Shown here piece after piece: positions 33,838 through 49,895 of a DNA stretch of 64,000 nt; position 1 is the stretch's first letter; every line of letters begins with the position of its first letter. The stretch lies in NCBI GenBank assembly GCA_965224245.1, contig OZ245046.1, positions 5,440,001 through 5,504,000 on the forward strand. The letters run 5' to 3'. Made by a program: the position numbers and the translations under genes. Source of the DNA: Candidatus Eiseniibacteriota bacterium. GTDB taxonomy: Bacteria; Eisenbacteria; RBG-16-71-46; CAZAMP01. The notes beneath the pieces are model-generated. The model was not told where the DNA came from and searched no databases. It saw only the letters and a program-made list of their open reading frames with translations.

Positions 33838-33990
33838 GGGCTCTCGTGGGTGAGGTCGACGTCCGGTGAGGATAGAGGGGGAGGCGCGATCGTGTCCACC
33901 GACCGCGCGGCGGCACCCCGGTGCCTCCGTTCCGAACCGCGTGACCGGTACCCCCTGATCCGGCTCGTGTGAGGACACCGCCGTCCCGGC

Positions 33991-35616
33991 CTACCGGCCG
34001 CGGAGATCCAGATAGGACCGGTGGGCCGAATCCACGGAGCTCCCCTCCAGAAGGCTCTTCACCCGATCGGCGAGCAGGCCGCGCACCGCGTACAGATGGT
34101 GGTAGCGCTCGCCGTAGCGCACCAGAAACAGGCGATACCGGCCCGGCGCCGCCACCAGCGCGCGATACACGGCGATCGGCGCGCGCTGGACCGGACTCAG
34201 GCCGTCCAGCGAGAGTCGCGCGAAGTCCGGACGGATCAGCCGTCTCAGGTGCTCGAGGTCGATCTCGTGCACCGGCGCACCGACGCCGACGAGCGGCGTG
34301 AGCGTGTCGGCGGTGTGCACGAGGACGATGTCCGGTCCGAACGCGTCGAGCAGATGCTCGTCCGCGCCGTGGCCCGCCACCTCGGCCGAGTTCAGGCCCA
34401 CGAGATCCAGCGTTCGACATCGCATCCAGAACGGGAGCCGTCCCGCCTCGCTGACCGCGAGAGAAACGTCCGGTCCGAGAGCACGCCGTAGCTCGAACGG
34501 AAACGTGTTGATGTACTGGGGTGTGGTGAGAACCCGGAGCTCCCGGGCGAGCGCCATCGCGTGGCCGAGGCTGACGGTGGTGGCCACCAGCAGGATCGAC
34601 ACGAGCCGACTCGTCGGTGCCGACCCGCGTCGCGCACCGGCCACGAACGCGCCGAACACGAGGAGCAGAAAGGCCGTGGCCGGTCCTTGCAATCGGAACG
34701 CCACGTTCTGCGACGGCGTCGTCACGCCGAGCACGCCGACGAGGAGCGCGAACGGGATCGCAGCTCGTTCCCACCGGCGTCGCGCTTCGGGATCGGCGAG
34801 AACCCAGGCGAGTGCGGCCACGCACACGAGAGCAGCCTGCCCGGCGGCCCAGCTCAGGTTCGAGCGGATCCCGTCCCAGGCCGATCCGTGCAGTCCCTTC
34901 ACGATCAACGGCAACGGCAAGAGCTCGCCGAAGTACGTCGTGCGCCAGATCATGTAGACCACCGCCACGGCTCCACACGCCGCGGTCGCGATCGCGTACC
35001 GTCTCGCGTCGCCGGCTCGACGTGCCGTCAGCAGCCCGAGCACCACGACCGCACCGCCGACGACGACCCCGTCGGGTCGGAAGAGCGCGACCACCAGTGC
35101 GAGCGCCGGGACGAGCACGACCGAGCGTCGGGTCCACCCGAGTAGACGGTCGACGAGAACGAGACACAGGCCACCATAGGCGAGCGTGCTGAATCCGCCG
35201 TAGCTGGCCGCGGCCAGGGGAGAGAGGGCGATCATCGGCGGGAGAATCCACGCGATCGGATCCCGAGCGCGACCGGCGCCGGTGTAGCGGGCGAGGACGA
35301 TCGCACAGGCGTACGCACCGGCGGCGTTCAGCATCGCCGCCGCGATCGCGACGTCGACCCCCAGGGAGACGAGCGCCGTCAGCAGCACCAGCCACAGGAA
35401 GTCGGTCGCTCCCTCGGTGTGCGGTCCCCCGGGATGAAACACGATCCCGTGGCCGTGGGCGGCGTTCTCGGCGTACGTGAACAGGATGTACGCGTCCTCG
35501 TGCGGGTGACCGTCCGAGAGGACGGCGTACCCGATCGCGAACACCATGATCACCGTCACCAGCGCGACGAGGTGGTGGATCGGTGACGGCGTCGGGGTCG
35601 CTCTCCCGGAGGTCAC
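33991..35616 (-). CDS. Polytopic membrane protein, GT-C-like (AftB-like N-terminal motif)
   Basis: EDAYILFTYAENAAHGHG...EGATDFLW, RPDG, many TM, C-terminal DLVGLN. Confidence 0.65.
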   Translation of the reverse strand: MTSGRATPTPSPIHHLVALVTVIMVFAIGYAVLSDGHPHEDAYILFTYAENAAHGHGIVFHPGGPHTEGATDFLWLVLLTALVSLGVDVAIAAAMLNAAGAYACAIVLARYTGAGRARDPIAWILPPMIALSPLAAASYGGFSTLAYGGLCLVLVDRLLGWTRRSVVLVPALALVVALFRPDGVVVGGAVVVLGLLTARRAGDARRYAIATAACGAVAVVYMIWRTTYFGELLPLPLIVKGLHGSAWDGIRSNLSWAAGQAALVCVAALAWVLADPEARRRWERAAIPFALLVGVLGVTTPSQNVAFRLQGPATAFLLLVFGAFVAGARRGSAPTSRLVSILLVATTVSLGHAMALARELRVLTTPQYINTFPFELRRALGPDVSLAVSEAGRLPFWMRCRTLDLVGLNSAEVAGHGADEHLLDAFGPDIVLVHTADTLTPLVGVGAPVHEIDLEHLRRLIRPDFARLSLDGLSPVQRAPIAVYRALVAAPGRYRLFLVRYGERYHHLYAVRGLLADRVKSLLEGSSVDSAHRSYLDLRGR

Positions 35617-37100
35617 CGGTTCGACCTCTCGGGCGGGAGCGCGAGCTCGGTGACGAGCTCGTGCGTTCGTGGGCTCCGGAACGCCGAGCGCGCATCCTCC
35701 TCGAGCGTGAGCTCGGCCACGGTGCGCGACGCGAAGTTCGCGTTCAGGAGACGGCTCGTCAGCGCCTCGGGATCGCGCGCCAGGCTCTCACGGAGCACGA
35801 CGACCCGACGTCCCGACACGAGGGCCTCTCCGATCGCCCGTGCGATGCGGACCGCCTCCTCGCGCGGGGCCGCGACCGCCGGGTCGTGCCGGGGCACGAT
35901 CAGCTCGCGTCGCGTGTAGTAGGCGACGAAGGGTGCCATGCGATCGGCCAGCACGGCGGTCGTCGCCGGCGTCTCGGCGTCGATCCAGCTCGCCAGCGTC
36001 CTGGGGCCGGAGACCCGCGACCGGAGCTGCATCGCTGGCCATGCATCGACGAGCGGGACGATGATCAGACCCAGGACGCCGATCGCGACCGCGGCCGGCC
36101 GGGCGCGCGCCAGCGCGCCGCCGCCCAGCACGTCGGTGAGCCCGCGCGCCACCAGGAGCGAGAGCACGGCGGCGGGCAGCGCGAGCGAGCGCGGAAAGAG
36201 CTCCCCGGCGAGGAACGCGTGCACGAGCGCGACGCCGGTCCACGCGGCGAGGATCCGGAGCATCCGGCCGCCGTGAGCGACCGCGATCGCCGCGAGACCG
36301 AGCCCGATCGGAAGCACCGCGCGGGCGAGATCCCCGGCCCCCGGAGCGAGGTCGTGGAGCGAGGGAAGGCCGGTCGATCCGAACATCGCGCTCGGGCTCG
36401 CTCCCGGCCCGAGCCGTCCACCGAGCATGGCCACGACGGCGGCGACGAACGCGATGGCGAACGCACCGAACGGCCGGGGCGCGGCGGGCTCCCGGACGAG
36501 GAGGACGAGACCCACCGTCGCCGACGCGAGCCACGTCGTGGGGAGCGTCAGCATCGCGCCGGCGGCCAGCGCGGCGGCCAGGAGCCCATGGCGGAGGTGG
36601 ACGTCGGGGGCCATCACCATGCCCAACGCACCGAGCACCAGCGCGATCGCGAGCGAGTGTCCCGACGCGGCGGTGGCCTCGGCGACCAGCAGCGGATTGG
36701 CCCCCACCAGGAGCGCCACCCCCGAAGCGATCGGATGCCCGGCTCCCAGCACCCGCGCCAGCCGGTACGCTGCCAGCACGGCCAGCGAGCCGAACAGCGC
36801 CCCGCTGGCGATGAGCGCTCGCTCGAGGTCCATGCCGAGCGCGCTCGTCAGGCTCGCCACCGCACGGCTCGCGGCCACGAGGAGCGGGCCCGGGTGCGAC
36901 GATGCACCGGCGATCCAGCCGATCGGATCGCCACCGCTGCTCGAGACCACGCGCGAGGCGAGCGCCACCTCGTCGGGGTGCACGAAGCCCGCGTGACCCG
37001 CGGCCAGGTACCCGAGGAGGGTCCCCAGTGTGATCGCGATCGGGACGGCGACGTCGCTGGCGACACGCCGCCCGGGAGTCTCGCTCGCGCCCGTCGCCAA
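35613..37100 (-). CDS. Polytopic membrane protein, ArnT/PMT-like (GT-C) glycosyltransferase
   Basis: HPDE loop after TM1, HPGP, ~11 TM plus C-terminal soluble domain; GGAGGTG RBS before TTG. Confidence 0.55.
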   Translation of the reverse strand: MATGASETPGRRVASDVAVPIAITLGTLLGYLAAGHAGFVHPDEVALASRVVSSSGGDPIGWIAGASSHPGPLLVAASRAVASLTSALGMDLERALIASGALFGSLAVLAAYRLARVLGAGHPIASGVALLVGANPLLVAEATAASGHSLAIALVLGALGMVMAPDVHLRHGLLAAALAAGAMLTLPTTWLASATVGLVLLVREPAAPRPFGAFAIAFVAAVVAMLGGRLGPGASPSAMFGSTGLPSLHDLAPGAGDLARAVLPIGLGLAAIAVAHGGRMLRILAAWTGVALVHAFLAGELFPRSLALPAAVLSLLVARGLTDVLGGGALARARPAAVAIGVLGLIIVPLVDAWPAMQLRSRVSGPRTLASWIDAETPATTAVLADRMAPFVAYYTRRELIVPRHDPAVAAPREEAVRIARAIGEALVSGRRVVVLRESLARDPEALTSRLLNANFASRTVAELTLEEDARSAFRSPRTHELVTELALPPERSNR

Positions 37101-37422
37101 TCGTCACCTCCGACCCGTGCGTTGCCACCGCGCCGGGCGATGGAAGACCTCGTTCGTGCTGCGCCGCCGACGCAACCGGGAGCACCCGCCGGTCGCAAGG
37201 GGCGTTCCCCGCCCGGTGCGAGCGCTCATACCGAGGATGCCGTCTCCGGTTGGTGATGTCTATAAGTATCTTCATTGCAACACATTGCGGCATTCGCTAC
37301 GGCGACCTACGACAACCGGCGGCCATCCGTGTTCGGTCGGGCGGCCCCGTGCGTCTGACTCCACGACGACGAGATCGAGCGGGCCAGCGGCGAGTTTCGC
37401 CGCCCCGGCATGCCAACGTAAG

Positions 37423-38076
37423 ATGTCAGGAGGTTCACCCATCGCATCCCTAGCCCGGGTCGCGCTCTTGACCGACGACACACGAGATCCCGGCGTCCCG
37501 CCGGTCGAGCGTACGGTTCCGGTTCTGGAATCGTCGCTCCAGCTGATCACGCGTGCCCGTCAGGGCGACTCCGTGGCCGTGGATCGACTCTGCGCGCGCT
37601 ACCTGCCCCGGCTTCGCCGCTGGGCGACCGGGCGGATGCCCAGGAAGTCGCGCGGGCTCCTCGACACCGACGATCTCGTCCAGAACACGCTCCTGCGCAC
37701 CGTCCGTCGCCTCGGGGACTTCGAGACCAGTCACCCGGGTGCGTTCCAGGTCTACGTGCGGCAGGTGCTGATCAATCAGATTCGCGATCTCGGTCGACGC
37801 GGCGCGCGCCGGCCCGACGAGGACGAGCTGATCGAGGAGATCGACGATCCGGGGCCGTCTCCGCTGGAGGCCGCCATCGGATCGGACATGGTCGAGCGCT
37901 ACGAGGCCGCCCTCGCGCGACTCGAGCCCGCCGCGCGAGAAGCCATCGTCGCTCGCGTGGAGATGGGCTGGTCGTACGCGCAGGTGGCCGAGGTACTGGG
38001 GAAACCGTCGGCCGACGCGGCTCGCATGACCGTTGCGCGTGCGCTGTCGCGGCTGGCCGAGGAAATGGACGTGTGA
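37423..38076 (+). CDS. ECF-type RNA polymerase sigma factor
   Basis: Region 2 DTDDLVQNTL...YVRQVLINQIRD; region 4 ALARLEPAAREAI...GWSYAQVAEVLG...RALSRL; start may be TTG 37468. Confidence 0.92.
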   Translation: MSGGSPIASLARVALLTDDTRDPGVPPVERTVPVLESSLQLITRARQGDSVAVDRLCARYLPRLRRWATGRMPRKSRGLLDTDDLVQNTLLRTVRRLGDFETSHPGAFQVYVRQVLINQIRDLGRRGARRPDEDELIEEIDDPGPSPLEAAIGSDMVERYEAALARLEPAAREAIVARVEMGWSYAQVAEVLGKPSADAARMTVARALSRLAEEMDV

Positions 38077-38079
38077 ACC

Positions 38080-39870
38080 ATGCGTGACGAGGGCTTCCTG
38101 GACGTCGCCGCGACCATCTCCGATGGTGCCGGGATCGAGTGGTCGGTCATCGAGGGACGGGCGCGCTCCGACGACGAGCGCCGGCACCTGCGCCGGCTGC
38201 GTCTGGTCGACGACATCGTCACGTTTCATCGCGTGTGGCAGAGCCAGGTGGACGAGCTCGGCGATCCGATCGACGCGACCTCGCCGGACGCGCCGAGCTA
38301 CGACGCGACGTGGGGCCCGCTGGGTCTCCTGGAGCGGATCGGGCAGGGATCGTTCGGCGTCGTGTATCGCGCGTGGGATCCCAAGCTCGAGCGTGAGGTC
38401 GCGCTGAAGCTCTCGCCCGCCGGCGCCGATCCGGCGCGTGCGGCGACGATCTCCCGCGAGGGACGCCGGCTGGCCCGCGTCGATCACCCCAACGTGGTCA
38501 CGGTGTACGGCGCCGCCGACGACGACGGCCGCGCCGGGATCTGGATGGAGCTGATCGACGGGATCACGCTTCAGGACCAGGTCAAGCGCGACGGACCGAT
38601 GAGCGAGCGCGAGGTGATCGCGATCGGTCAGGACCTGTGCGGCGGGCTCGCCGCGATCCACGGCGCCCGGCTCCTGCATCGCGACATCAAGGCGGCGAAC
38701 GTCATGCGCGAGCGCGGCGGGCGCATCGTGCTGATGGATCTCGGATGCGGCCTGGACACGCCCACCGGGGTGGCGCCGGCCGCCCGTGACGCGCGGAGCA
38801 CGTCGTCGATCTCGGGCACGCCGATGTACATGGCGCCCGAGCTGTTCGACGGCGCCGAGGCGAGCTTCCGGAGCGACGTCTACGGACTCGGCATGCTCCT
38901 GTACTTCCTCGCCACCGGAACGTACCCGGTCGAGGCGATCACGCTGGGTCAGCTCACCGACGCGCTGAAGCGCGGAGAGCAGCGCCGGCTGCGCGACGTG
39001 CGCCCCGATCTGTCGTACACGTTCGTGCAGGTGATCGAGCGCGCGATCGCGCTGGATCCCGCCGGTCGGTACGCGTCGGCCGGCGAGCTGGACGACGCGC
39101 TGGGTCGCGTGCTCTCGTCCGATCTCGATCGATCGGGACGCGCCGCGACGCTCGAGACACCGGCACCCACCGGGTCTCCCGCGCCCACCGATCGTCCTGC
39201 GCGCCGTGGACGGATCGCGACCCTCGCGCTCGCGGCGGCGGTCGTGGCCGCCATCGTGCTCTGGCGATGGGCACCCTGGGCGTCCGGCTACGTCGTCGAC
39301 GCCACGTTCTATCGTCAGCTCCCGTCGGGTGCGGTCGAGGCGCTCGCGATGAACGATCGCGTGCAGCCGAAGGAGCAGTTCCTGATGCGCGCCGAGCTGT
39401 CCGACGAGACATGGGTCTACGTGATCAACCAGGACGATCACGGCGAGTCGTACCTGCTCTTCCCCATGCCGGGGCTCGAGCAGACGAACCCGCTTCCGGC
39501 CGGACGGCACGAGCTGCCCGGCGTGTGGCTCGGCGAATCGATCCGGTGGCAGTTCTCCTCCGCGGGAGGTCGCGAGCGGCTGCTCCTGGTGACCTCGCCG
39601 GAGCCGCTCACCGACTTCGAAGGCGCGCTGGCGGCACTGCCTGCGCCGCGCGCCGACGGCGAGCTCCGCGCCGCGCAGCTCTCGCCCGAGAGCGTGCGCC
39701 GGCTGCGCGGGGCGGGTGCCATCGCGCGCCATGCGCCCGGGGCGGCGAGCGCGCCGCCGGAGATCCTCGAGATGGCCGAGCCGCTGACCGGGCGCGAGCG
39801 CTCGTCGGGGCTGCGGGTCCGCGAGATCGTGCTGGAGAACCCGGTAGATCCGCAGGGAGACGGCCGGTAG
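38080..39870 (+). CDS. Membrane Ser/Thr kinase with N-terminal helical extension and DUF4384-like extracytoplasmic domain
   Basis: GQGSFGVVY, VALK, HRDIKAAN, DLG, GTPMYMAPE; single TM; WVYVINQDDHGESYLLFP...ERLLLVTSPEPL resembles DUF4384; 3 nt after the sigma stop. Confidence 0.88.
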   Translation: MRDEGFLDVAATISDGAGIEWSVIEGRARSDDERRHLRRLRLVDDIVTFHRVWQSQVDELGDPIDATSPDAPSYDATWGPLGLLERIGQGSFGVVYRAWDPKLEREVALKLSPAGADPARAATISREGRRLARVDHPNVVTVYGAADDDGRAGIWMELIDGITLQDQVKRDGPMSEREVIAIGQDLCGGLAAIHGARLLHRDIKAANVMRERGGRIVLMDLGCGLDTPTGVAPAARDARSTSSISGTPMYMAPELFDGAEASFRSDVYGLGMLLYFLATGTYPVEAITLGQLTDALKRGEQRRLRDVRPDLSYTFVQVIERAIALDPAGRYASAGELDDALGRVLSSDLDRSGRAATLETPAPTGSPAPTDRPARRGRIATLALAAAVVAAIVLWRWAPWASGYVVDATFYRQLPSGAVEALAMNDRVQPKEQFLMRAELSDETWVYVINQDDHGESYLLFPMPGLEQTNPLPAGRHELPGVWLGESIRWQFSSAGGRERLLLVTSPEPLTDFEGALAALPAPRADGELRAAQLSPESVRRLRGAGAIARHAPGAASAPPEILEMAEPLTGRERSSGLRVREIVLENPVDPQGDGR

Positions 39871-39947
39871 GCCGCTCGCCGGATCGTGTCGGACGGGCAT
39901 GGTAGAATCGACCATCCCGCGCAACGACGAAAGGCACGGAACAATTC

Positions 39948-41582
39948 ATGACATCTGGCTTCGCACCTTCATCGGCGATCTGGCGCCCGCGACATCGGCA
40001 ACCCGCGTGGTGGTTCTCGGCCATCGGCGGCGCTCTCGCGCTCGCGTGTCTCGGCGCCACGCCGGTCATCGCCGGGCTCGGCGACACCGGCTCGGCCGGT
40101 ACGCTGCCCGACGACGGGGAGGGCGCCGGCGCGGAGGGGGCCGACCGGGATCCCGACGACACGACGACCGGCGTCTGCGGAACCGTGAACAGAAGCGGCG
40201 GCGAGCCCGGCGCCTGGATCTGGATCGTACCCGACGACGAAGTGGTCCAGACCTCCGAGCTGAAGGGCTCCGAGAAGGAGGATTGCTCCGAGGCGTGCGA
40301 CGTGGCGTTCGGTCGATCGTGCGCATCCTCGCGACTGGGGAGCCCCGTGAACGGGAGCGATCCCGGTGGACGGCGCGGTGCGGACGAGCCCGGCGCCGGC
40401 ATTCTCGAGACGTACCTCCTCGTCGTCGGGTCGTACCAGGACCCGGGCGTTCAGCCCCAGCCCGTCGTGTGGGAGAGCCCGACGTCGGCGCCGCCGTTCA
40501 CCGCGAAGACGCTGGACACGCTCGCCGGCGGCGAAGGCCAGGCGCACGCCGTCGTCAAGGCGGACGACGTCTGGTGGATCGGCGGCGACACGAAGGGACC
40601 GGCGGGCTGTGTCCGCCCCTGCGTGTGGACACGTCAGTGCGAGGACGGGCCCTGGATCCTGACCGTGCTGCCGGTCCCGGCCGGAAGCTGCGAGGCCTCG
40701 GTGCGCGACGTCTTCGACTTCGGACCGGCCGGCGTCGGCGCCGTGGGCTACGCCGACGACGCCAAGGGCGTCAGGATCCCGTTCCTCTGGCGCTACGCCG
40801 CCGGCGCGTGGACCCCCGATCCGCTTCCGGTGCCGGGTGATCTGCCCGGGCGGGCCATCGCGGGATTCTGGCGATCGGGACGAGCTCAGATCGTGGGACA
40901 CGTCGACTGCACGCTGCCGAGCTCGTGCGGGGGGCTCCTCTGGGACTGGACACCCGGCGGAGGGGCCACCGTGACGCCGCTGGATCCGACGCTGGGTCCG
41001 ATCTACCGGCCGACCGACATCCTGCCCTACGGACCGACCTGCGGCGTGATCATCACGGGCACGGTCCTGACCGGCACGGGCATGCTCGCCGAGCGCATTC
41101 CGGTTCTCCAGTACGCGCGGTGCGCCCCCGGCGGCGTCCTCGACCCGGTCGACCTGAACGCGCTCCTCTCGGAGCCGTACGACGGCGTCCTCCGCACGGC
41201 CGACGCGATCACGGCCGGCGGGCACGTGTACGTGACCGGTGACGCCACCACGACCGGCGGGCCGAGCTTCGGCAACGCGTATCTGTGGACGTCCGACGCG
41301 CTACTCGACGCCCCGGACGTCGTGGCGGTGGCGCCACTCATCGCGGCGACTCCCAACCCGGTGCGCCGGAGTGTCCGGCTCACGCTGCCCGAGGGAGCGG
41401 CCGGCGCCGACGTCCGCGTCTTCGACGCCGGCGGGCGCGTCGTGCGCGAGCTCGCCGGAGGCCGCGTCCGCGCCTGGGATCGGACCGATAGCGCTGGCCG
41501 TCGCGTACCCGATGGGGTCTACTTCGTCAGAGCGACCTGGCCGTCCGGCGTCTCGACGGCCAAGCTCGTCGTCGACGACTAG
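39948..41582 (+). CDS. Secreted Cys-containing beta-repeat protein with FlgD-Ig/T9SS-like C-terminal domain
   Basis: Signal peptide; repeated G...W...L units resembling HAF extracellular repeats; CTD PNPVR...VFDAGGRVVREL...WDRTDSAGRRVPDGVYFV. Confidence 0.75.
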   Translation: MTSGFAPSSAIWRPRHRQPAWWFSAIGGALALACLGATPVIAGLGDTGSAGTLPDDGEGAGAEGADRDPDDTTTGVCGTVNRSGGEPGAWIWIVPDDEVVQTSELKGSEKEDCSEACDVAFGRSCASSRLGSPVNGSDPGGRRGADEPGAGILETYLLVVGSYQDPGVQPQPVVWESPTSAPPFTAKTLDTLAGGEGQAHAVVKADDVWWIGGDTKGPAGCVRPCVWTRQCEDGPWILTVLPVPAGSCEASVRDVFDFGPAGVGAVGYADDAKGVRIPFLWRYAAGAWTPDPLPVPGDLPGRAIAGFWRSGRAQIVGHVDCTLPSSCGGLLWDWTPGGGATVTPLDPTLGPIYRPTDILPYGPTCGVIITGTVLTGTGMLAERIPVLQYARCAPGGVLDPVDLNALLSEPYDGVLRTADAITAGGHVYVTGDATTTGGPSFGNAYLWTSDALLDAPDVVAVAPLIAATPNPVRRSVRLTLPEGAAGADVRVFDAGGRVVRELAGGRVRAWDRTDSAGRRVPDGVYFVRATWPSGVSTAKLVVDD

Positions 41583-41668
41583 GACCCGCCGAGCACGCCC
41601 GACGTCTCACGGGGTCCGCGCGATTCAGGGGGTGGCGTTCGCCGCTCCCGCACCCCCGGGAGCGCTCG

Positions 41669-44600
41669 GTGCCGCGCGACAGAGCCCACTCCGATCGATT
41701 CCCCAGCTTCGACGGCGCGTGCGGGTCATGCGCCGCCTTCGGCGCGGGGCTCCTGGCCCTGGCCACGACCCTCGCCGGGTCGGCGTCGGCCGAGTGCACG
41801 CTGAGCGCGTCCGACGCGGCCCGCGTCACGCAGCTCGAGGATGCGGTCGAGCGCCACGTCACCACGGCACGCTTCGACTCCGCCAGCGTGGCGGCGGAGG
41901 AGATCGAGACGCTGTGGTCGCGGGCCGACGTCGCGGGCATGCCGTGCGGTCCCGCGATCGAGTGGCGCTGGGAGCACGACGCCTACCGGACCGTGGCCGG
42001 GCTGGACGCACCGGACCGCGAGCGGTTCGCCCGCTCGTCCGGGGAGCTGCGACACGCCATCGCGCTCCAGCGCGGGAGTCACACCGACAGCGCCGTCGTC
42101 ATCTTCGAGAGCATCGCGTCGCTCTACTCCCGCACGCTCGGTCCCGGCCATCCGTGGACGGCGCAGGTCGACGGGCGGCTCGCGCTGGCGCTTCACGCCG
42201 ATCGGCGTCCCGACGAGGCGCTGCCCATCGCGTACCGGTACCTCGACGGGCTGGTGTCCGCGTACGGAGAAGAGCACGTGGAGGTCGCGAAGGCGGAGTA
42301 CAACGTCGCCCGCATCGAGCGGGCGCTCGGACACTTTCCCGACGCCGAGGCACTCCTACGGTCGTCGCTGGCCCGGCGCGAGCGACTCTTCGGGGCCGAC
42401 GGCGCCGGTGTCGTGGTGGCGCTGACCGCGCTGGCCGACGTGTTGAAGGAGCTCGGCCGATACGCCGAGGCGGCGCCCCTGGCCCGGCGATCGGTGGCGA
42501 TCCGTCGAGCCGAGTACGGCGACGACCACCCGCGGGTCGCCACCGGGCTCAACGGGCTCGGAACGATCCTGGAGGCGCTCGGCGAGTATCGAGAGGCCGA
42601 GCGCGCGTATCGCGAGGCGCTGGCCATTCGCGAGGCGTCGCTGGCCGCGGAGGATCCCGGCATTGCCTACGTGCTCCGGAATCTCGCGATCACGCTTCAG
42701 CGACAGGGACGGTTCACCGAGGCGGCGGCGCTGCTGGCCCGCTCGATCTCGATCGCGGAGGCGGCCTGGGGACGGGACGACGATCGCGTGGCCCGGCACG
42801 TGCGATCGCTCGCGCTGGTGTACGCGGCGCTCGGCGACCACGAGCGGGCCGAGGCGCTCGATCGTGAGGTGATCGCCACGCTGCGCCGGGCCCTCGGCGA
42901 CGAGCATCCCGAGGTGGCCAAGACGCTCCTGAACCTCGTCGACGCGCTCGTGCCCCAGAGACGACATGCCGAGGCGATGACCGTGCTGGACGAGGCGATC
43001 GAGATCGGACGCCGCCCGAACGCCTCGCGCGTCCATCTCGCGACGAGCCTGATGATGAAGGGTGTGCTCCTCCGGCGCGACCATCGTCTCGACGAAGCCG
43101 AGGTCGCGGTCGAGGAGGCGCTCGGCATCCTGCGCGAGCAGGTGGACGCCGACCATCCGCTGGTGGCGCAGACTCTGGAGTCGCTAGGGGGGCTGGCCCG
43201 CGCTCGCGGTGACTACCGGACCGCGTTGACGTTTCTGACGCAGGCCACCGAGGCGAGGCGCGCGCGGCTCGGTCCCGAGCACCAGCGCGTGGCATCGGGG
43301 CTTCTCGCATCCGCGCTGTGTCATCTCGGGCTCGGCGAGGGCGACGCGGCATACCGGGACGCGGCCGAGGCCGAGGAGGTGGCCCGCGATCATCTCGCGC
43401 TGATGAGCTCGGCGACGTCGGAGGCTCTCGCGCTCGCGTACGCCGACACACGCACGTCGGGGCTGGATCTCATGACGACGCTGGCGGTGGAGCCGGTGAC
43501 CGAGCACGGCGATCCTCCGACCCCGTCGGCCGACATCGCCCGTCAGGCCCGCGTATCCGCGACGTGGGATGCGATCGTCCGCTCGCGAGGACTCGTCGTG
43601 GACGCGATGGCGGCCCGACAGCGGCGCGCGTTCGAGACCGCGTCGGACCGGGTCCGTTCGCTCGTCTCCGAGCTGGCCGATGCGCGCGAGCAGCTGGCCA
43701 ACCTGGCCTTCACGAACGTCGACGAGGTGGAGGAGGATGTGTACCGGCGCTCGCTGGCCGCGGCTCGCTCGCGCCGGCGCGAGGCCGAGGAGGCGCTGAC
43801 GCGCGAGATGGGCGCGGTGCCGGGCGCGGTGGCCGACGTGGGTCTCGCGGACGTCCGCGCGGGGCTCCCGGCCGACGGCGCGCTGGTGGCGTACTGGCGC
43901 TACGAGCGGGCCGATGCGCGGCCGGATGCACCACGTGAGCCGAGGATCGGCGCGTTCGTTCTCGCGGGACCCGATCGCGCCCCGCGCGCGATCGACCTCG
44001 GTCCCGAGCGCGCGATCGACGACGCGGTCCGGGCCTGGCGCGCGACGCTCGTGGACGCCGCCACGCGATCCGACCTCGCCGGCGCCGAGGACGACCACCG
44101 CCGTGCATCGCGACGGCTGGCCGAGCGGATCTGGGATCCGATCCGGCGCGACGTCGCGGACGCCGGACACGTCTTCGTCGTGCCGGACGGCGCCGTGCTG
44201 GTCGTGAACCTCGCGGCGCTGGTCGGTCCCGACGGACGGTACCTCGTCGAGAGCGAGACGCCGCTGACGACGCTGGGCGTCGAGCGGGACCTCGTCGACG
44301 CCCCGGGCGAGAGCGCCGGGGGGCTTCTCCTCGTCGGGGATCCCGACTACGGAGAGGCGCTGGTCACGGTCTCGCCCGGCGGGTCGGCGACGCCCGCCGA
44401 CCGGACGGACGCGCCGGGCTTCGCGCCGCTCCCGGGGACCCGGGTCGAGGTGGAGACGATCGCAGGGCTGTGGGACGCCCCCGAGGATCTGGTCGTGCTG
44501 ACCGGCGCCGACGCCACCGAGGCCGCCTTCAAGCGCGCGGCACCGCGGTTCGGCCTGCTCCACGTGGCGACGCACGGGTTCTTTCTCGATGCCGGGACCA

Positions 44601-45109
44601 CCCGTCGCGAGGGGCTCCGCGGCGCCGGCGAGATCGCCGTCGCGTCCTCGTCGAGCCGCCCTCGGCGCGCGCCACGGAGCCCGCTCCTCCGGTCGGGGCT
44701 CGTCCTGGCCGGCGCGAACGCACGCGGAGAGCGGGACGGCGACGCCGACGACGGCATCCTGACCGCCGAGGAGATCGCCGGGCTCGATCTGGCCCGGGTC
44801 GGGTGCGTGGTGCTGTCGGCGTGCGACACCGGGCTGGGAGAGGTGCGGGCCGGCGAGGGGGTCTTCGGCCTGCGGCGGGCGTTTCGCATCGCCGGCGCGC
44901 ACGGGGTGGTCATGAGCCTGTGGCCGGTGGACGACACGGCGACAGAGGCGTGGATGCGCGCCTGGTATCGCGCCCGGCTCGACGACCGGGTGGGCATGAC
45001 GGAGGCGGTACGGGTCGCGTCACGGTCGGTGATCCGCGATCGCCGCGCGCGGGGGGAGAGCACGCACCCGTTTCTGTGGGGTGCGTTCGTCGGCGTCGGG
45101 CGCGAGTGA
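41669..45109 (+). CDS. Exported TPR-CHAT (caspase-like) protease
   Basis: Signal peptide; many TPR units (DHPRVATGLNGLG); CHAT motifs VVPDG, LPGTRVE, HVATHG (His), LSACDTG (Cys), SLWPVDD, HPFLWGAF. Confidence 0.93.
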   Translation: MPRDRAHSDRFPSFDGACGSCAAFGAGLLALATTLAGSASAECTLSASDAARVTQLEDAVERHVTTARFDSASVAAEEIETLWSRADVAGMPCGPAIEWRWEHDAYRTVAGLDAPDRERFARSSGELRHAIALQRGSHTDSAVVIFESIASLYSRTLGPGHPWTAQVDGRLALALHADRRPDEALPIAYRYLDGLVSAYGEEHVEVAKAEYNVARIERALGHFPDAEALLRSSLARRERLFGADGAGVVVALTALADVLKELGRYAEAAPLARRSVAIRRAEYGDDHPRVATGLNGLGTILEALGEYREAERAYREALAIREASLAAEDPGIAYVLRNLAITLQRQGRFTEAAALLARSISIAEAAWGRDDDRVARHVRSLALVYAALGDHERAEALDREVIATLRRALGDEHPEVAKTLLNLVDALVPQRRHAEAMTVLDEAIEIGRRPNASRVHLATSLMMKGVLLRRDHRLDEAEVAVEEALGILREQVDADHPLVAQTLESLGGLARARGDYRTALTFLTQATEARRARLGPEHQRVASGLLASALCHLGLGEGDAAYRDAAEAEEVARDHLALMSSATSEALALAYADTRTSGLDLMTTLAVEPVTEHGDPPTPSADIARQARVSATWDAIVRSRGLVVDAMAARQRRAFETASDRVRSLVSELADAREQLANLAFTNVDEVEEDVYRRSLAAARSRRREAEEALTREMGAVPGAVADVGLADVRAGLPADGALVAYWRYERADARPDAPREPRIGAFVLAGPDRAPRAIDLGPERAIDDAVRAWRATLVDAATRSDLAGAEDDHRRASRRLAERIWDPIRRDVADAGHVFVVPDGAVLVVNLAALVGPDGRYLVESETPLTTLGVERDLVDAPGESAGGLLLVGDPDYGEALVTVSPGGSATPADRTDAPGFAPLPGTRVEVETIAGLWDAPEDLVVLTGADATEAAFKRAAPRFGLLHVATHGFFLDAGTTRREGLRGAGEIAVASSSSRPRRAPRSPLLRSGLVLAGANARGERDGDADDGILTAEEIAGLDLARVGCVVLSACDTGLGEVRAGEGVFGLRRAFRIAGAHGVVMSLWPVDDTATEAWMRAWYRARLDDRVGMTEAVRVASRSVIRDRRARGESTHPFLWGAFVGVGRE

Positions 45110-45226
45110 GTCGACGGAGTCCGCCGCGCGAGGCGCCGGCGGGCTCAGCGCACGACGGCCGTCGCCGGTGGCCGCAACACGTCCCACGGGTCCGGGCGCG
45201 TGCGGATGGAGATCGCGCCATCGCGA

Positions 45227-46903
45227 TCAACGTCGGCGCGGTGCGAACGCGTAGCCGATCGACAGCTCCACCCATCGCTCACCGTGCGGCGCGGTGCCGG
45301 CGTGATGAAAGTGGTACGTGCCCGCGACCTCGATCGCCGCGTCGCCGCGTGTCGGCAGGCGAACGCCGGCGCCGGCGTAGAAGCCGGCCTGCGTCGATTC
45401 GCGCGCGATGAGGTCGCCCTCCAGCGCGACGCGATGGCCGGCGCCCCCGGCCCGCACGAACGCCTCGTTCCCGCTCGATGGGAGATCGACGTCGGCGCGA
45501 AGGCCGGCCGAGAACTGCGTCAGGGTGTAGTGCGGGTCGCGATCCTCCTCGGGCTCGGTGTCGACCAGAGCGGAGTAGCGCCCGCTCAGCGCCGCGCGCA
45601 TCAGCGATGTCTCCGCGGAGGCCGGTGAGCCGTCGATCGGGAACCGGGAGCCGACGCGGATGCCGTTGCCGTGGGAGATCCCCACCGACAGGCCGCGAAG
45701 CGGCGTCACCCGCGCGTACGCGACCGAGAACGACGGTGTCGACAGATGACGGGGTCGGGGCCGATCGCCGGAGGCGACGATCTCCAGCCCGAACTTGTTG
45801 ACCGACGACTCGAGGGCGCGTGCTTGTGGGACGCGCGCGTAGTCGAAGCGGAGATCGACCGCGAGAGGCAGGGGCACGACGATCCCCATGCCGTAGGTAT
45901 GATCGAGGATGTCCCCGTCCCGGTCGTGTACGTATCCGAATCGGCCGAACACGATTCCCTCCGCCGACACCTCGTTGCCCCAGTTGCGAATGAAACGCTC
46001 GCGATAGCTGCCGTCCTCGGCCAGGATGATCTGCGGCTGATTGCTGTCGAAGGCGGCCGTCCACGCGAGCGGGCCGGCAACGATCTCCACGGCGACGCCG
46101 TCGCGGCGGATCCGGCCCAGCGGCGAGGCCTGTCCCTCGTCGATGAAGGTGATGCTCTCCTTGCCGTTTCCGAGGAACGTCCGGTTCGTCCAGGCCATGC
46201 CGGCCGACACGCGGAGTGCAGGGGAGGTGAGCGCGGGCGGGCCACCCAGTGGACGCCACACCGGCGTGCGCACGATGAGTCCGTAATCCCACACCCAGGC
46301 GTCGCCCTTGCCCGCTTCGCCGTCCGGTGTGGCCCAGGCCGGCGCGAGATCGACCGTGACCTCCTTGACCGTGACCCCGACCGAGAGCACGTCGCCCGGA
46401 ACGTACGGGATCGACTCGCGCACGGACCGGGGCGCGAGCTCGAGCGGCGTGAGCGCCAGTGTTGCGCCCAGCGCTCGCTCGTACGACTCGAACTCGCCGA
46501 GCTCCTCTTCCTCGTCGCTGATCGCGGTCGAGAGGCCGTAGCTGAGATCGGTCGTCTGGAGCGAGATCGCGACGCCCCGGAGCGGCACGGTCGCGGCCCA
46601 GAATCCGAACGTGACGTCGTGCGCGAGACCGGGAACCAGCACGGTCAGAGGTTCGGTTCCGAACAGGCGCGGCGATCGCACGTTCGTCACCGCGGCGGGG
46701 TTCCACCAGGCGGCGGTGCCGTCCGACGCGATGGCCGATCCGGCCCGTCCCATCCCGTCGTATCGACCACCGGGGGTGATGAGGAGCGACTGGGCGCCCG
46801 CGGTGCTCTGTGCGTACGCGTCGCGGCTGATCATCGACAGCGAGCAAGTGATCAGACCGGTCACCGCGAGCCGGTGCCAACGCGCCGTCGGGAGTCGTGT
46901 CAC
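45227..46903 (-). CDS. PorV/PorQ-family outer-membrane barrel with extra C-terminal barrel-like domain
   Basis: AGAQSLLITPGGRYDGMGRAGSAIASDGTAAWWNPA is the PorV-type N-terminus; amphipathic strands; AAGGAGG before GTG 46903. Confidence 0.75.
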   Translation of the reverse strand: MTRLPTARWHRLAVTGLITCSLSMISRDAYAQSTAGAQSLLITPGGRYDGMGRAGSAIASDGTAAWWNPAAVTNVRSPRLFGTEPLTVLVPGLAHDVTFGFWAATVPLRGVAISLQTTDLSYGLSTAISDEEEELGEFESYERALGATLALTPLELAPRSVRESIPYVPGDVLSVGVTVKEVTVDLAPAWATPDGEAGKGDAWVWDYGLIVRTPVWRPLGGPPALTSPALRVSAGMAWTNRTFLGNGKESITFIDEGQASPLGRIRRDGVAVEIVAGPLAWTAAFDSNQPQIILAEDGSYRERFIRNWGNEVSAEGIVFGRFGYVHDRDGDILDHTYGMGIVVPLPLAVDLRFDYARVPQARALESSVNKFGLEIVASGDRPRPRHLSTPSFSVAYARVTPLRGLSVGISHGNGIRVGSRFPIDGSPASAETSLMRAALSGRYSALVDTEPEEDRDPHYTLTQFSAGLRADVDLPSSGNEAFVRAGGAGHRVALEGDLIARESTQAGFYAGAGVRLPTRGDAAIEVAGTYHFHHAGTAPHGERWVELSIGYAFAPRRR

Positions 46904-47207
46904 GCCGTCCTCCTTCCGTGGGCTCCGGACGATCGGCCGGCGGGAGGGGGTCATGGAGCCGCCTGGGTGCACCCCGCGCTGGGTCGTGCCTCACCCGCTG
47001 TGGCACGCCCGTGCCTGCATGGGTTTTGTAACCCCCGGTGGACCCGCTGCCAACCGGAGGCCGAACGGGTCACGGACCGGTCACCTACCGCCGCCGGACG
47101 CCGCGGCGAGATTCTCGCGAGGGCCGTGTCGGTGATCGTCCGAAAACGTCGCCCATGGAGATACCCGCGATCGGGGCCCCGCACCCCGGACCTGGAGGAT
47201 CTCCAAG

Positions 47208-49721
47208 ATGCTGTCTCTCAGTCTGTTGCGTGACAAGAAGCGGCCCACGGCGCTGATCGCGTCGCTCGTCGTCTCGGTCGTCCCGGTGGCGATGGCCCCG
47301 GCCGCCCCCGCCGATCCCGCCGCCGCCGCCGCCGGCGGCCGGTACGCCAGCGAGCCCGACTGGATCGAGGTGATCTTCGCGCCCACGTCCCGCGTTCGCC
47401 TGCGGGACGGTGCGCTGCGCGACCTCGGAGAGCCCGCGCTGGCCGGGGTCGGCGTCGTGCTGGCGCAGGTGGATGCGCCGCAGTGGCATCGGCTCACGCA
47501 CCTCGAGGAGTCCGAGATCGATGCGATGCGCGAACGCGGCATCGCGAACACGGGCCGCGACGTCCCCGATCTCAACAACGTCTACCGCCTCCACGTCGGC
47601 TCCGGCGAGGTCTGGGACCTGAGTGCGAAGCTGGAGGCCCTGCCGGGAATCGCGCTGGCACGACCAGTTCCGCTGCCGGTTCCGGCGCCGATACCGCCCG
47701 CGTATGCCCAGGAGTATCGCGCGTCCGGCGCGTGGAGCCCGTCGGGGATGGGGCACGACTACTTCGCGCAGTTCCCGTTCGGCACCGGAGCCGGCGCGCA
47801 CGTGTGTGATCTCGAGTACAACTGGACGTTCACCCACGCCGACGTGTCGAAGCTCGCCGGCTCGCAGATCAACCCGACGTTCGTGCCCTGGGGTGGCGAG
47901 GAGCACGGTACCGCCGTGGCGGGCATGCTCGTGGCCGACGACAACGGCTGGGGCATCACCGGGCTCTGTCCCGATGCGAACTTCTGGACCTGTGGCACCT
48001 ACTACGGGGCCGCGCCCACGTGGAATCCGGCGGGCGCGATCCTGATCGCGAGCGCCTTCCTGCCGCCCGGTGGCGTGATCCTGCTCGAGCAGCAGTGGGA
48101 CTACGACGACCCGACGACGACCGGGCCCGACTACGTCCCGATCGAGTTCTACCTGGACTACTGGCCGTCGGCTCAGACCGCGAACGCCGTCTACCAGGCG
48201 ATCCAGCTGGCGACCGCGAACCTCCAGTACGTCGTCGAGGCGGCAGGGAACGGCAGCTACGACCTGGGCTCCATCGGGGTCGTCGGGGACTCGGGCGCGA
48301 TCATCGTCGGCGCCGGCGGCGGAACGGCGGGGAACGATCGTCAACGGCTCCCGTTCTCCAGCCACGGGTTCCGCGTCAACGTGCAGGGGTGGGGCGAGAA
48401 CGTCGTGACCACCGGCTACGGCACGCTGTGGGAGGAGGGCCTCACCGACGACTACGACTTCACGGCGACGTTCTCGGGGACGTCGAGCGCATCGGCCCAC
48501 GTCGCCGGCGCGGTGACCGTGTACTCGGCGTTCCACACGCCGACGTTCGGGGTGCTCGCGCCGAACACGATGCGCGACCAGCTCATCCTCAACGGGACCG
48601 ACCAGGTCTACGGGCTGCCCGGCTACATCGGACCGCGACCGGATCTGATGCGTCTTCACATGCTGTACGCACCGTATCCGATGCACCTGGGCCGCGACTT
48701 CGGCGACGCGCCGGAGGGCGTCCGGGCCTATCCGCCGACGCCCATCATCGGAGAGTTCCCCACGGTCTTCGGCCCGAGCGTCTCACCGGATGCGATGATG
48801 CACGCGCCTCACCCGGGGATCGCGCTGCACCTGGGGAGCATGATCGACTACGAGTTCGAGGGGAACGGAGGTGTGCCGTACCTCCAGTTCCACGAGGTTG
48901 ACTGGGACGAGTGCGACGACGCGTCGCCGGCGGACGACGGGCTTCTCTTCCCGCGCTCGTTCACGATCGACGGCGGGACGATCGCGCCGTGCACCACGCC
49001 CGACGTGCTCGGTCCGCGGTGCGGGCTCGTGAGCTGGGGCACCGACATCGACGTCGAGATCGTCAACCAGCTCCCCGACCCGGCGTACCTGAACGTGATC
49101 TTCGACTGGAACCAGGACGGGAAGTGGGGAGGCTCCGACAACGGATGCGGCTTTCGCGTGCCCGAGCTGGCCCTGGAGAACGTGCCCATCCCGACGACCG
49201 GAGCCACGCCGGTCCCGCTCTCGCAGCTCGTCCCGGGGCTGCCCCCGATCGCCACCGGCTCGGGGTCGGTGGTCTGGGTCCGGTTCACGTTGACCGACAC
49301 CCCGCTCCCGTTCCCGGCGACGTGGGACGGCGGGCTCGGATCCGGCGGCTGGGGCGTGATGCCCTACGGGGAGACCGAGGACTTCCTCCTGGCGCTCGAC
49401 GAGGAGTCGCTGGCCGTAGGCGATGGCGCGGGCACCGGCGGCGCCGTGCTGGAGATCGCCGGCGCGTTCCCGAACCCGTTCCGGAGCCGGATCGCCATCG
49501 GCTTCTCGCTCGAGTCGGCGACCGCGGTGACGGTCCGCATCTTCGACGTGTCCGGACGGCTGGTGCGCGATCTCGGGGCCGTTCCCCTGGACGCGGGCCC
49601 GCACCGCATCGTCTGGGACGGCCGCGACCAGGGTGCTCGTGACGTGGCGAACGGGCAGTACTTCGCCACGATCCGTGCGGCCGACACCGAGCGCACGGTC
49701 CGCCTTCAGCTCCTTCGCTGA
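47208..49721 (+). CDS. Secreted S8 subtilisin-like protease with GEVED-like and FlgD-Ig C-terminal domains
   Basis: Triad motifs CDLE, HGTAVAG, FSGTSSASAHVAG; AAGNG; YGETEDFLL; PNPF...IFDVSGRLVR...WDGRD. Confidence 0.88.
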   Translation: MLSLSLLRDKKRPTALIASLVVSVVPVAMAPAAPADPAAAAAGGRYASEPDWIEVIFAPTSRVRLRDGALRDLGEPALAGVGVVLAQVDAPQWHRLTHLEESEIDAMRERGIANTGRDVPDLNNVYRLHVGSGEVWDLSAKLEALPGIALARPVPLPVPAPIPPAYAQEYRASGAWSPSGMGHDYFAQFPFGTGAGAHVCDLEYNWTFTHADVSKLAGSQINPTFVPWGGEEHGTAVAGMLVADDNGWGITGLCPDANFWTCGTYYGAAPTWNPAGAILIASAFLPPGGVILLEQQWDYDDPTTTGPDYVPIEFYLDYWPSAQTANAVYQAIQLATANLQYVVEAAGNGSYDLGSIGVVGDSGAIIVGAGGGTAGNDRQRLPFSSHGFRVNVQGWGENVVTTGYGTLWEEGLTDDYDFTATFSGTSSASAHVAGAVTVYSAFHTPTFGVLAPNTMRDQLILNGTDQVYGLPGYIGPRPDLMRLHMLYAPYPMHLGRDFGDAPEGVRAYPPTPIIGEFPTVFGPSVSPDAMMHAPHPGIALHLGSMIDYEFEGNGGVPYLQFHEVDWDECDDASPADDGLLFPRSFTIDGGTIAPCTTPDVLGPRCGLVSWGTDIDVEIVNQLPDPAYLNVIFDWNQDGKWGGSDNGCGFRVPELALENVPIPTTGATPVPLSQLVPGLPPIATGSGSVVWVRFTLTDTPLPFPATWDGGLGSGGWGVMPYGETEDFLLALDEESLAVGDGAGTGGAVLEIAGAFPNPFRSRIAIGFSLESATAVTVRIFDVSGRLVRDLGAVPLDAGPHRIVWDGRDQGARDVANGQYFATIRAADTERTVRLQLLR

Positions 49722-49895
49722 TCGCGGACCGTCACGGCCCACGAGGGCGTCGTGCGGGGGAGCCACCGGTCGAGTGGCTCTCGCACGACGCCGGCGAGCC
49801 CCCCATCCCTTGCCGAGCCCGGTATCGTGCAACCCGGACCCCAGCGCCTCCGTTGCCCCTCGAGACGTCCACTCCAACGGAAGGATCCCGACGAC

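Follow-up and report, generated by a model that had tools for sequence, protein, structure and literature searches.

Among the extracytoplasmic function (ECF) sigma factors of the kinase-linked kind, regulation by direct phosphorylation is established, according to the accessible text of three reports, for EcfP with PknT of Vibrio parahaemolyticus and EcfK with PknS of Xanthomonas citri, both of group ECF43; further kinase-linked groups are ECF59-62, 217, 267 and 283 (PMC13147305, PMC8999054, PMC7826278). In ECF43, as two of these reports describe it, the acidic DAED of region sigma2.2 is replaced by an uncharged motif with a phospho-acceptor Thr (PMC8999054, PMC13147305). Other ECF-type sigma factors are controlled through proteases that combine TPR and CHAT domains. 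Csx30, the substrate of the protease Csx29, binds an ECF-type sigma factor, and the available portion of the same work describes one group of Csx30 C-terminal domains as DUF4384, a domain that frequently occurs in fusion with protease domains (Kato et al. 2022, bioRxiv 10.1101/2022.08.17.504292). Cleavage by Csx29 follows a Leu or Met residue and that by separase the Arg of (S/D/E)xExxR, and DdvA is a periplasmic TPR-CHAT with a His-Cys dyad, fused to an anti-sigma factor, for which self-cleavage in the linker is proposed and, in the text accessible, not shown (PMC11506125). The locus described here, at positions 37,423 to 45,109 of a 64,000-nucleotide window from a Candidatus Eiseniibacteriota bacterium (contig OZ245046.1), would join these two known kinds of control, the kinase-linked ECF sigma factors and the sigma factors controlled by TPR-CHAT proteins.

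An earlier note, made from the letters of this DNA, had read four genes here as one signalling system: an ECF sigma factor, a membrane kinase with DUF4384, a secreted protein with a C-terminal domain (CTD) of the sorting type and an exported TPR-CHAT protease, in a CRISPR-independent analogue of the Csx29 system. The analysis below retains three of these genes as a conserved module, together with the proposed link between protease and kinase, and removes the CTD protein from the scheme. Full-text literature searches, with the supplements of the ECF classification (Casas-Pastor et al. 2021) and the kinase-ectodomain survey of Iyer et al. 2020 outside their scope, returned no description of a module that comprises an ECF sigma factor, a receptor kinase and an exported CHAT protein.

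A conserved module of sigma factor, kinase and TPR-CHAT protease

The ECF sigma factor, the kinase with DUF4384 in its ectodomain and the TPR-CHAT protease form a conserved three-gene module. A CHAT gene is found within about 9.5 kb in 38 of 61 kinase-DUF4384 loci, and the chance of finding one within 9.5 kb of a given gene is about 4%, as estimated from 16 CHAT matches in the 6.94 Mb of the genome to which the window belongs. Locus gene counts given here rest on tblastn and hidden Markov model maps. Four kinases of this genome have an ectodomain composed of a transmembrane segment, DUF4384 and a tail, and three of the four have a sigma gene upstream and a TPR-CHAT gene adjoining or one gene off. 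These three cassettes are the present locus, C1:942538-948271 (minus strand) and C1:187480-192841 (plus strand), the latter two with the CHAT gene directly after the kinase gene.

Two samples of related loci were drawn. The first came from a search of 40 relatives with a profile of the ectodomain, which gave 16 full-length places in 12 genomes and one split copy. Of these 17 loci from 13 genomes, examined over 9.5 kb on either side, 15 have an adjacent sigma gene and 11 have a CHAT gene; one of the two loci that lack an adjacent sigma gene is cut by a contig end, and none was detected at the other. The order is sigma-kinase-CHAT in six cases and CHAT-sigma-kinase in one, while one arrangement is divergent and two are convergent; at one further locus, L050, an unrelated CTD-type gene intervenes. 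Such varied orders and orientations point to selection on proximity. The second sample took 40 further places in order of E-value, with 9 kb of contig upstream as the only filter, and has an adjacent sigma gene at 38 and a CHAT gene at 24. The earlier note had made co-location of all four genes in other genomes a matter to be looked up, and it is thus the sigma, kinase-DUF4384 and TPR-CHAT genes that travel together, without the CTD gene.

The kinase ectodomain occurs in 84 of 206 genomes of the phylum, a tally that includes one unpublished genome (G083), and in 50 of the 121 high-quality ones. From the protease side, 185,579 species genomes were scanned with an alignment of the CHAT domain and the best 80 loci, from many phyla, were kept. 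The specific trio of sigma factor, kinase and ectodomain is present at 10 of these best 80, in records titled Acidobacteriota, Vicinamibacterales, Vicinamibacteria, Candidatus Eisenbacteria and uncultured bacterium. Another of them (L063) has two copies of this sigma type and no kinase match, and 21 more have nearby a weak match to the sigma profile (17-44 bits) that is unconfirmed as an ECF sigma factor. The ectodomain in 84 of 206 genomes and the trio in metagenome-assembled genome records of Acidobacteriota and Candidatus Eisenbacteria indicate a widespread pathway.

Judged by its profile matches, the first gene of the locus encodes an ECF sigma factor (sigma-70 group 4) with sigma2 and sigma4 domains only. 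The protein exceeds the Pfam cut-offs for Sigma70_r2 (33.6 bits), r4_2 (33.6 bits) and Sigma70_ECF (25.8 bits) and the NCBIfam cut-off for TIGR02937 (75.2 bits, cut-off 42.9), and its top NCBIfam match, to the Planctomycetaceae subfamily TIGR02984, is below the cut-off (87.8 bits, cut-off 183.75). Region sigma2.2 reads D-T-D-D-L-V-Q, with a Thr at position two that all 19 orthologs keep, and all but one of these carry [DE]-T-x-D, the exception (L035) having Ala first. Membership in ECF43 was considered and rejected because the acidic D-T-D-D is kept in this region; the protein is thus not of the ECF43 type, which is intrinsically inactive. By tblastn, the genome holds nine paralogs of this sigma factor, eight of which have a kinase gene directly downstream.

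The second gene encodes a Hanks-type Ser/Thr kinase, as its match to Pkinase (135.4 bits) and the presence of K110, HRD200, D220 (which reads DLG) and M-A-P-E indicate. Neither its N-terminal 80 residues nor its C-terminal tail has a Pfam match below E=0.1. An N-terminal region of about 80 residues is common to all eight sigma-linked kinases of the genome and is a candidate sigma-docking region. Four of the eight are long (1066-1215 residues) and have other C-terminal regions, one of them with a TPR match. Beyond the transmembrane segment, the match to DUF4384 (PF14326) falls short of the 27-bit cut-off when the protein is searched (25.1 bits) and exceeds it at the same place in a whole-genome scan (29.6 bits); the paralogs score 38.8-58 bits in that scan. 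The ectodomain model, built on a 28-row alignment and with a mean predicted local distance difference test score (pLDDT) of 78.7, contains a confident beta-sandwich, followed by a disordered stretch in which the motif described below lies (pLDDT <50 at model residues 152-171) and then by terminal strands. A fold search of this model against the PDB gave no matches at E<=1e-3 and generic beta-sandwiches only.

For the fourth gene, sequence and model agree on a TPR-CHAT protease of clan CD and of the separase/Craspase type. The protein scores 208.6 bits for CHAT and 253 bits for TPR_12 in eight stretches (Pfam), and the predicted structure (pLDDT 86.1, predicted template modelling score 0.85, 65 rows) has a long TPR superhelix, presumed to be a sensor or docking surface, joined to a caspase-fold domain. 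Foldseek against the PDB places human separase first (9hn0_B, 8.6e-14), followed by Csx29 (8eey_B, 9.5e-13) and DdvA (8rw5, 1.8e-12). Each of 65 aligned homologs has the dyad H969/C1052, and conservation this strict implies that CHAT catalysis matters for something. The N-terminus has basic residues, then FGAGLLALATTLAG, then SASA ahead of E42, and by a hydropathy heuristic it resembles a signal peptide. Most of 19 orthologs have clearer signal peptides by the same heuristic, in which a basic n-region and a hydrophobic core lead to an AxA-type end. An export-type N-terminus would place the CHAT protein in the same compartment as the kinase ectodomain.

These results bear out much of what the earlier note had seen: four co-directional genes with the domains it named, an intact His/Cys dyad, a signal-peptide-like start on the TPR-CHAT, a kinase with one transmembrane segment and a C-terminal domain, and, given the export-type N-terminus and the single transmembrane segment, a protease and a kinase ectodomain that would occupy one compartment.

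A motif common to kinase tails and CHAT loops

The evidence that ties the protease to the kinase is a short motif found in both. Kinase tails carry L-R-G-[IV]-G-G after DUF4384, and 90% or more of 20 sequences preserve the Arg and the Gly that comes next; all 40 held-out tails have the Arg, 39 of them with Gly as the following residue. In the partner CHAT proteins, x-R-G-[IV]-G-G occurs about 15 residues past the catalytic His, with the Arg in 11 of 11, and held-out CHAT loops have it in 25 of 25, followed by Gly in 23 and by Ala in two. Most CHAT paralogs of the same genome that do not lie beside such kinases are devoid of the motif. Both copies are modeled as low-confidence loops that flank well-folded domains, and the CHAT loop that contains R984-G985 has pLDDT <50 throughout.

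The motif varies from cassette to cassette, and it varies in parallel in the two proteins. Identical forms in kinase and CHAT are RSIGGL (L002), RAVGGL (L057), RGVGGMVP (L138), RGVGELA (L170) and RGIGLL (L154). The window itself has RGAGAIA in the kinase and RGAGEIA in the CHAT, and other pairs that differ are, with the kinase given first, RSVGGL and RSIGGL (L053), RGIGLL and RAIGLL (L151), and RSIQLRK and RGI-HLRQ (L092). In a discovery set of 20 pairs, which left out four pairs with broken or truncated frames (in the kinase at L051, L058 and L067, in the CHAT at L090), 78 of 140 positions are identical between partners, versus 56.7 +/- 4.1 when partners are shuffled. A held-out sample of 24 pairs, from which the second CHAT of L169 was omitted, gives 103 of 168 versus 73.5 +/- 4.0. 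When kinases at 50% identity or more were collapsed, all 44 pairs fell into 33 kinase clusters, with 136 of 231 identical positions versus 99.1 +/- 4.6. None of 20,000 shuffles reached the observed value in any of these comparisons. Seven genomes have at least two cassettes, and there 11 of 17 kinases match their neighbouring CHAT better than any other, while for three the neighbour is tied with another.

Co-inheritance alone does not predict that two different proteins should show rare variants in parallel, and the same short co-evolving motif in protease and kinase suggests that the protease probably acts directly on the kinase. The direct link that the earlier note had supposed thereby gains a concrete basis in the disordered loops of both proteins. 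The motif is probably the recognition site of the CHAT protease, with a predicted cut after the Arg.

Several loci resemble the module or parts of it. A kinase-DUF4384 gene of the same genome with no CHAT neighbour (L003:3409-5175) has the tail H-R-G-V-G-G-L-T, and a TPR-CHAT gene of that genome with no kinase neighbour (L173:3719-7117) has the loop T-R-G-L-G-G-L-T; going by these sequences, the two orphans may pair in trans. The L003 kinase has H-G-D and is without the catalytic-loop Lys (HGDVTAAN), and may thus be a pseudokinase. Outside the window, L004:2650-12062 (G000:C1:3943650-3953062, minus strand) looks like a kinase-free version of the module, encoding in order a distant ECF sigma factor (233 aa), a 302-aa single-pass DUF4384 protein (43.6 bits), a 1394-aa CTD protein and a TPR-CHAT. 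Its DUF4384 protein has V-R-G-T-G-G between the hydrophobic segment and DUF4384, and its CHAT loop reads T-R-M-D-G, a poor match. A third flavour in the same genome, also outside the window, is L172:4068-8303 (G000:C1:4961068-4965303, minus strand), which encodes a 177-aa protein with a weak Sigma70_r2 match (20.6 bits, under the cut-off), a 259-aa protein that has no Pfam match and a 992-aa TPR-CHAT (CHAT 140 bits). In a record titled Candidatus Krumholzibacteriota, L070:11226-12861 has a weak sigma-like match directly after a TPR-CHAT gene, then a 308-aa open reading frame (ORF) that is DUF4384-like (37 bits to the ectodomain profile), with no kinase, an arrangement that resembles L004.

Proposed mechanism and alternatives

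We propose that the CHAT protease recognises the kinase loop and alters the kinase that controls the sigma factor, so that the three genes constitute an envelope signalling module; from the sequence and structure-model evidence we give this reading a probability of roughly 0.55. The TPR-CHAT would be exported to the periplasm and meet there the ectodomain of the membrane kinase, in which the DUF4384 beta-sandwich is followed by a flexible loop with L-R-G-[IV]-G-G and by a short C-terminal beta element. It would recognise this loop and most likely cut after the invariant Arg. Processing of the ectodomain would alter the activity of the cytoplasmic kinase domain, and the kinase would in turn phosphorylate, and so control, the ECF sigma factor encoded beside it, on the pattern of other kinase-linked ECF groups. 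The CHAT protein's own copy of the motif, beside its active site, may serve self-processing or self-inhibition. Separase cleaves itself at substrate-like sites, and the binding of securin to separase is of the pseudosubstrate type. Differences in the site from cassette to cassette could allow a single cell to run several such pathways in parallel and free of cross-talk. The parts of this scheme that we infer are binding, the occurrence and position of cleavage, the direction in which the kinase is affected, phosphorylation of the sigma factor, the signal sensed by the TPR superhelix and the regulon.

A more specific form of this proposal, which we hold as tentative, is a bacterial protease-activated receptor kinase, in which an exported CHAT that senses through its TPR arm would clip R|G-[IV]-G-G in the sensor domain of a eukaryote-like kinase and so switch the sigma factor, with the site as a specificity code that would hold parallel pathways apart and DUF4384 as a general docking domain. 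It is part of the same tentative reading that DUF4384 might present substrates to CHAT and caspase proteases, including in Csx30 of Craspase.

A number of points weigh against the proposal that the CHAT acts on the kinase and thereby on the sigma factor. Binding and cleavage stand as predictions from the motif; a complex prediction that used separate alignments for CHAT residues 345-1146 and for residues 401-596 of the kinase ectodomain (score 0.00, mark 0.32) weighs on neither side of the question of binding. The partner shuffles control only partly for common ancestry, and three of the 17 within-genome comparisons favour a CHAT that is not the neighbour. No CHAT gene was found within the DNA examined at 23 of the 61 kinase loci; several of these are cut by contig ends (L044, L149, L163 and L166 among them), and others have housekeeping neighbours (such as Mfd, MetH, or tricorn protease with alkaline phosphatase) or neighbours with no Pfam match. 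Since most CHAT-less kinases keep the motif, a partner in trans must be assumed for them. The signal peptide of the window's CHAT is weaker than those of its orthologs, with a maximum 11-residue hydropathy of 2.10 by the same heuristic. The motif is distal to DUF4384 and not membrane-proximal, so that cleavage at it would not be of the classical site-1 kind, and because Csx29 cuts after Leu or Met and not after Arg, the specificity of the CHAT is not readable from its relatives. The sigma factor has a DAED-like DTDD and so is without the feature that makes ECF43 members phosphorylation-dependent. Finally, enumeration of pairs of a 5-mer and a 4-mer at spacings of 14-18 nt upstream of 31 sigma genes gave a best pair in five of the 31 sequences, versus four in mononucleotide shuffles, so that no common promoter emerged from this crude method, which leaves room for one to exist.

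Among the alternatives, the one that survives best, itself unlikely, is that the kinase tail is a securin-like tether, a pseudosubstrate docked in the CHAT active site that would hold the protease inactive at the membrane or report its occupancy. The true substrates of the CHAT would then lie elsewhere in the envelope, its internal motif would be an autoinhibitory loop, and information might flow from kinase to protease, or the pair might form a sensor complex that works with no cleavage of the kinase. A co-varying motif fits binding without hydrolysis equally well, the motif is far from the membrane, and separase is inhibited by securin, which is seen bound to it in the separase-securin structure reported in the accessible part of PMC11506125. 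What speaks for a substrate over a tether is that a long disordered loop in which a small residue comes after an invariant Arg resembles a real cleavage site, and that the dyad is strictly conserved, so that catalysis matters.

It is less probable still that both loops are read or cut by some other factor, such as a periplasmic protease or a docking protein, that would co-regulate protease and kinase with no mutual contact of the two through the motif. CHAT-less kinases that keep the motif (L003, L035, L039, L040, L047 and 16 loci of the second sample) would be explained in this way, and genes for S8 and S41 peptidases lie downstream in the window. However, one common factor would favour a constant motif and not the cassette-specific pair variants that are seen even within one genome, and no third gene is conserved in the cassettes.

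The idea of the earlier note that the CTD protein belongs to the system, as its trigger or its output, making it a four-gene system, we regard as very improbable. The gene does lie between the kinase and CHAT genes and in the same direction, and at L050 and at the DUF4384 locus L004, too, a CTD-type gene separates the gene of the membrane protein from that of the CHAT. By its profile matches the protein carries a T9SS type A C-terminal sorting domain (T9SS, type IX secretion system), scoring 26.9 bits for TIGR04183 (cut-off 23) and 27.9 bits for FlgD_ig (cut-off 27), with the T9SS Por_Secre_tail at residues 468-542. Its N-terminal domain, however, has no match in 137 related loci, kinase and CHAT genes are adjacent with no CTD gene in both other cassettes of the genome, and the CTD gene at L050 is on the opposite strand. 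CTDs of the FlgD_ig type are moreover abundant, with at least 150 matches in the genome from 451 first-look candidates, numbers that imply that T9SS-type cargo makes up a large secretome. The CTD gene is probably an inserted bystander and not a conserved member of the module.

A cytoplasmic conflict or abortive-infection system in place of an envelope sensor is scarcely to be expected: CHAT or caspase, sigma factor and kinase do co-occur in a Haliangium type III-B locus (bioRxiv 10.1101/2023.06.23.546230, as far as its accessible text goes) and the kinase domain matches PADLOC defence-kinase profiles, but those matches are to the generic kinase domain, the CHAT matches generic TPR only, the sigma factor and the CTD protein match nothing there, the N-termini of CHAT orthologs are of export type, the ectodomain of the kinase is on the outer side of the membrane, and the annotated neighbours have no cas-type domains. 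With generic kinase-domain and TPR matches only, assignment to a known PADLOC defence system was rejected.

Should the CHAT protease indeed act on the kinase loop, the module offers a named candidate CHAT substrate with a site at residue level, R543|G544 in the kinase and R984|G985 in the protease itself. Outside CRISPR-linked systems, we know of almost no natural substrates of bacterial caspase-like proteases (CHAT, orthocaspase), and to our knowledge the signals of most kinase-linked ECF sigma factors are not known. The paralogous cassettes, with their differing motifs, provide a built-in test of specificity. A possible role for DUF4384 also emerges, which would apply equally to Csx30 in Craspase.

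Features of the locus and comparison with described systems

The window has a G+C content of about 70%. Consecutive ORFs of the four genes are separated by gaps of 3, 77 and 86 nt, and the coordinates of the genes and of the features assigned within them are collected in the table.

Table. Genes and predicted features of the locus, in window coordinates
Feature	Coordinates	Strand	Basis or remark
ECF sigma factor, 217 aa	37423..38076	+	Pfam r2/r4/ECF; internal ATG of ORF 37030-38076
Single-pass Hanks Ser/Thr kinase, 596 aa, with predicted periplasmic ectodomain	38080..39870	+	Pfam, hydropathy, alignment
Kinase N-terminal region, about 78 aa	38080..38313	+	Paralog tblastn alignments begin at residues 2-13
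Kinase catalytic domain, residues 84-332	38329..39075	+	Pfam, alignment
Sole predicted transmembrane segment, residues 376-400	39205..39279	+	Exactly one hydrophobic 19-residue window
DUF4384 beta-sandwich, residues 432-509	39373..39606	+	Pfam; model pLDDT >90
Kinase motif L542-R-G-A-G-A-I548 in predicted disordered loop	39703..39723	+	Candidate CHAT recognition/cleavage site R543|G544
C-terminal strands, about residues 573-587, ending in conserved L-x-N-P	39796..39840	+	Model positions 182-196, pLDDT 75-90
Secreted protein with T9SS-type C-terminal domain, 544 aa	39948..41582	+	Pfam, NCBIfam
TPR-CHAT protease with export-type N-terminus, 1146 aa, separase/Craspase/DdvA architecture	41669..45109	+	Pfam, model, Foldseek
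Signal-peptide-like N-terminus of CHAT protein, residues 1-41	41669..41791	+	Hydropathy heuristic and ortholog comparison
TPR superhelix, about residues 139-610	42083..43498	+	Pfam, model
CHAT caspase-fold domain, residues 812-1144	44102..45100	+	His969 at 44573-44575, Cys1052 at 44822-44824
Internal CHAT motif copy L983-R-G-A-G-E-I989	44615..44635	+	Disordered loop 977-999, 14 residues past catalytic His

Neighbours within about 6 kb comprise a kinase-TPR protein, three ORFs of 495-581 aa that have no Pfam match, and S8 and S41 peptidases. On the minus strand at 31105-37100, divergent from the sigma gene, are three genes, namely ORFs of 495 and 541 aa that have no Pfam match and a 957-aa kinase-TPR fusion. 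A 581-aa ORF, likewise with no Pfam match, lies directly beyond the CHAT gene on the minus strand (45227-46972), and it is followed on the plus strand (47208-51674) by an S8 subtilase with a T9SS-type CTD (837 aa) and an S41 peptidase with C-terminal TPRs (640 aa). The two peptidase genes have no conserved neighbourship with the module at the other loci. No cas-type domains occur among the annotated neighbours within about 6 kb, a statement about annotated domains in a window that was not scanned for CRISPR arrays. A scan of positions 36900-45400 for consensus promoters and terminators returned no promoter-like and no terminator-like sites, a result that is uninformative at 70% G+C.

Five described systems share features with the module. 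One is the Haliangium ochraceum type III-B system of SAVED-CHAT, PCaspase, PCc-sigma and PCk, which also co-encodes CHAT or caspase proteins, a sigma factor and a Ser/Thr kinase and which works as a proteolytic cascade. Its preprint, in the text accessible, places that system in the cytoplasm, with cyclic oligoadenylate as the trigger and an association with CRISPR and CBASS, and none of these features was seen here (bioRxiv 10.1101/2023.06.23.546230).

Separase, with Scc1 and securin, is the top structural match of the CHAT model; securin restrains it, and its cut falls after the Arg of a short linear motif. In contrast to the present module it is eukaryotic and intracellular, its motif is (S/D/E)xExxR where R-G-[IV]-G-G occurs here, and, so far as the accessible text of the source goes, it has no kinase or sigma partner.

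In DdvS/DdvA of Myxococcus xanthus, as in the scheme proposed here, an ECF sigma factor is controlled through a periplasmic TPR-CHAT. DdvA, on the partial account available, is a single protein in which a transmembrane helix links a zinc-binding anti-sigma domain to the TPR-CHAT, whereas here the CHAT is separate and the membrane partner is a kinase. A DdvA-type anti-sigma factor was rejected for the present CHAT protein, which has a signal-like start, no anti-sigma domain by Pfam and no internal transmembrane helix by hydropathy.

With the kinase-linked ECF sigma factors the module has in common a sigma gene beside the gene of a transmembrane Hanks kinase, with no anti-sigma gene between in the accounts accessible, and a periplasmic kinase domain that is expected to sense the signal (PMC13147305, PMC8999054, PMC7826278). 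The adjacency typical of ECF43 is seen here as a gap of 3 nt and recurs, as an adjacent sigma gene, at 15 of 17 and 38 of 40 loci of the two samples. The module differs from those systems in its acidic D-T-D-D, in an ectodomain of DUF4384 and a tail with the motif, and in a co-encoded export-type TPR-CHAT, of which the accessible text of those reports makes no mention.

The type III-E Craspase consists of Cas7-11, the TPR-CHAT protein Csx29, Csx30, Csx31 and the ECF-type RpoE. Membership of the present locus in this type was rejected, with no cas-type neighbours within about 6 kb and with CHAT orthologs of export type; it has neither Cas7-11 nor an RNA trigger, and its protease is apparently exported and not cytoplasmic. 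The carrier of DUF4384 is a receptor kinase here and not a sigma-binding protein, and the candidate P1 residue is Arg, where Csx29 on the published account as accessible cuts after Leu or Met. The two systems nonetheless have in common a TPR-CHAT of the same fold coupled to an ECF-type sigma factor, a partner whose site, a candidate one here, is in a flexible segment, Csx30 being cut in a flexible linker, and DUF4384, which one group of Csx30 proteins carries (Kato et al. 2022, in the portion available). With this domain on both sides, the analogy to Craspase is stronger than the earlier note could know.

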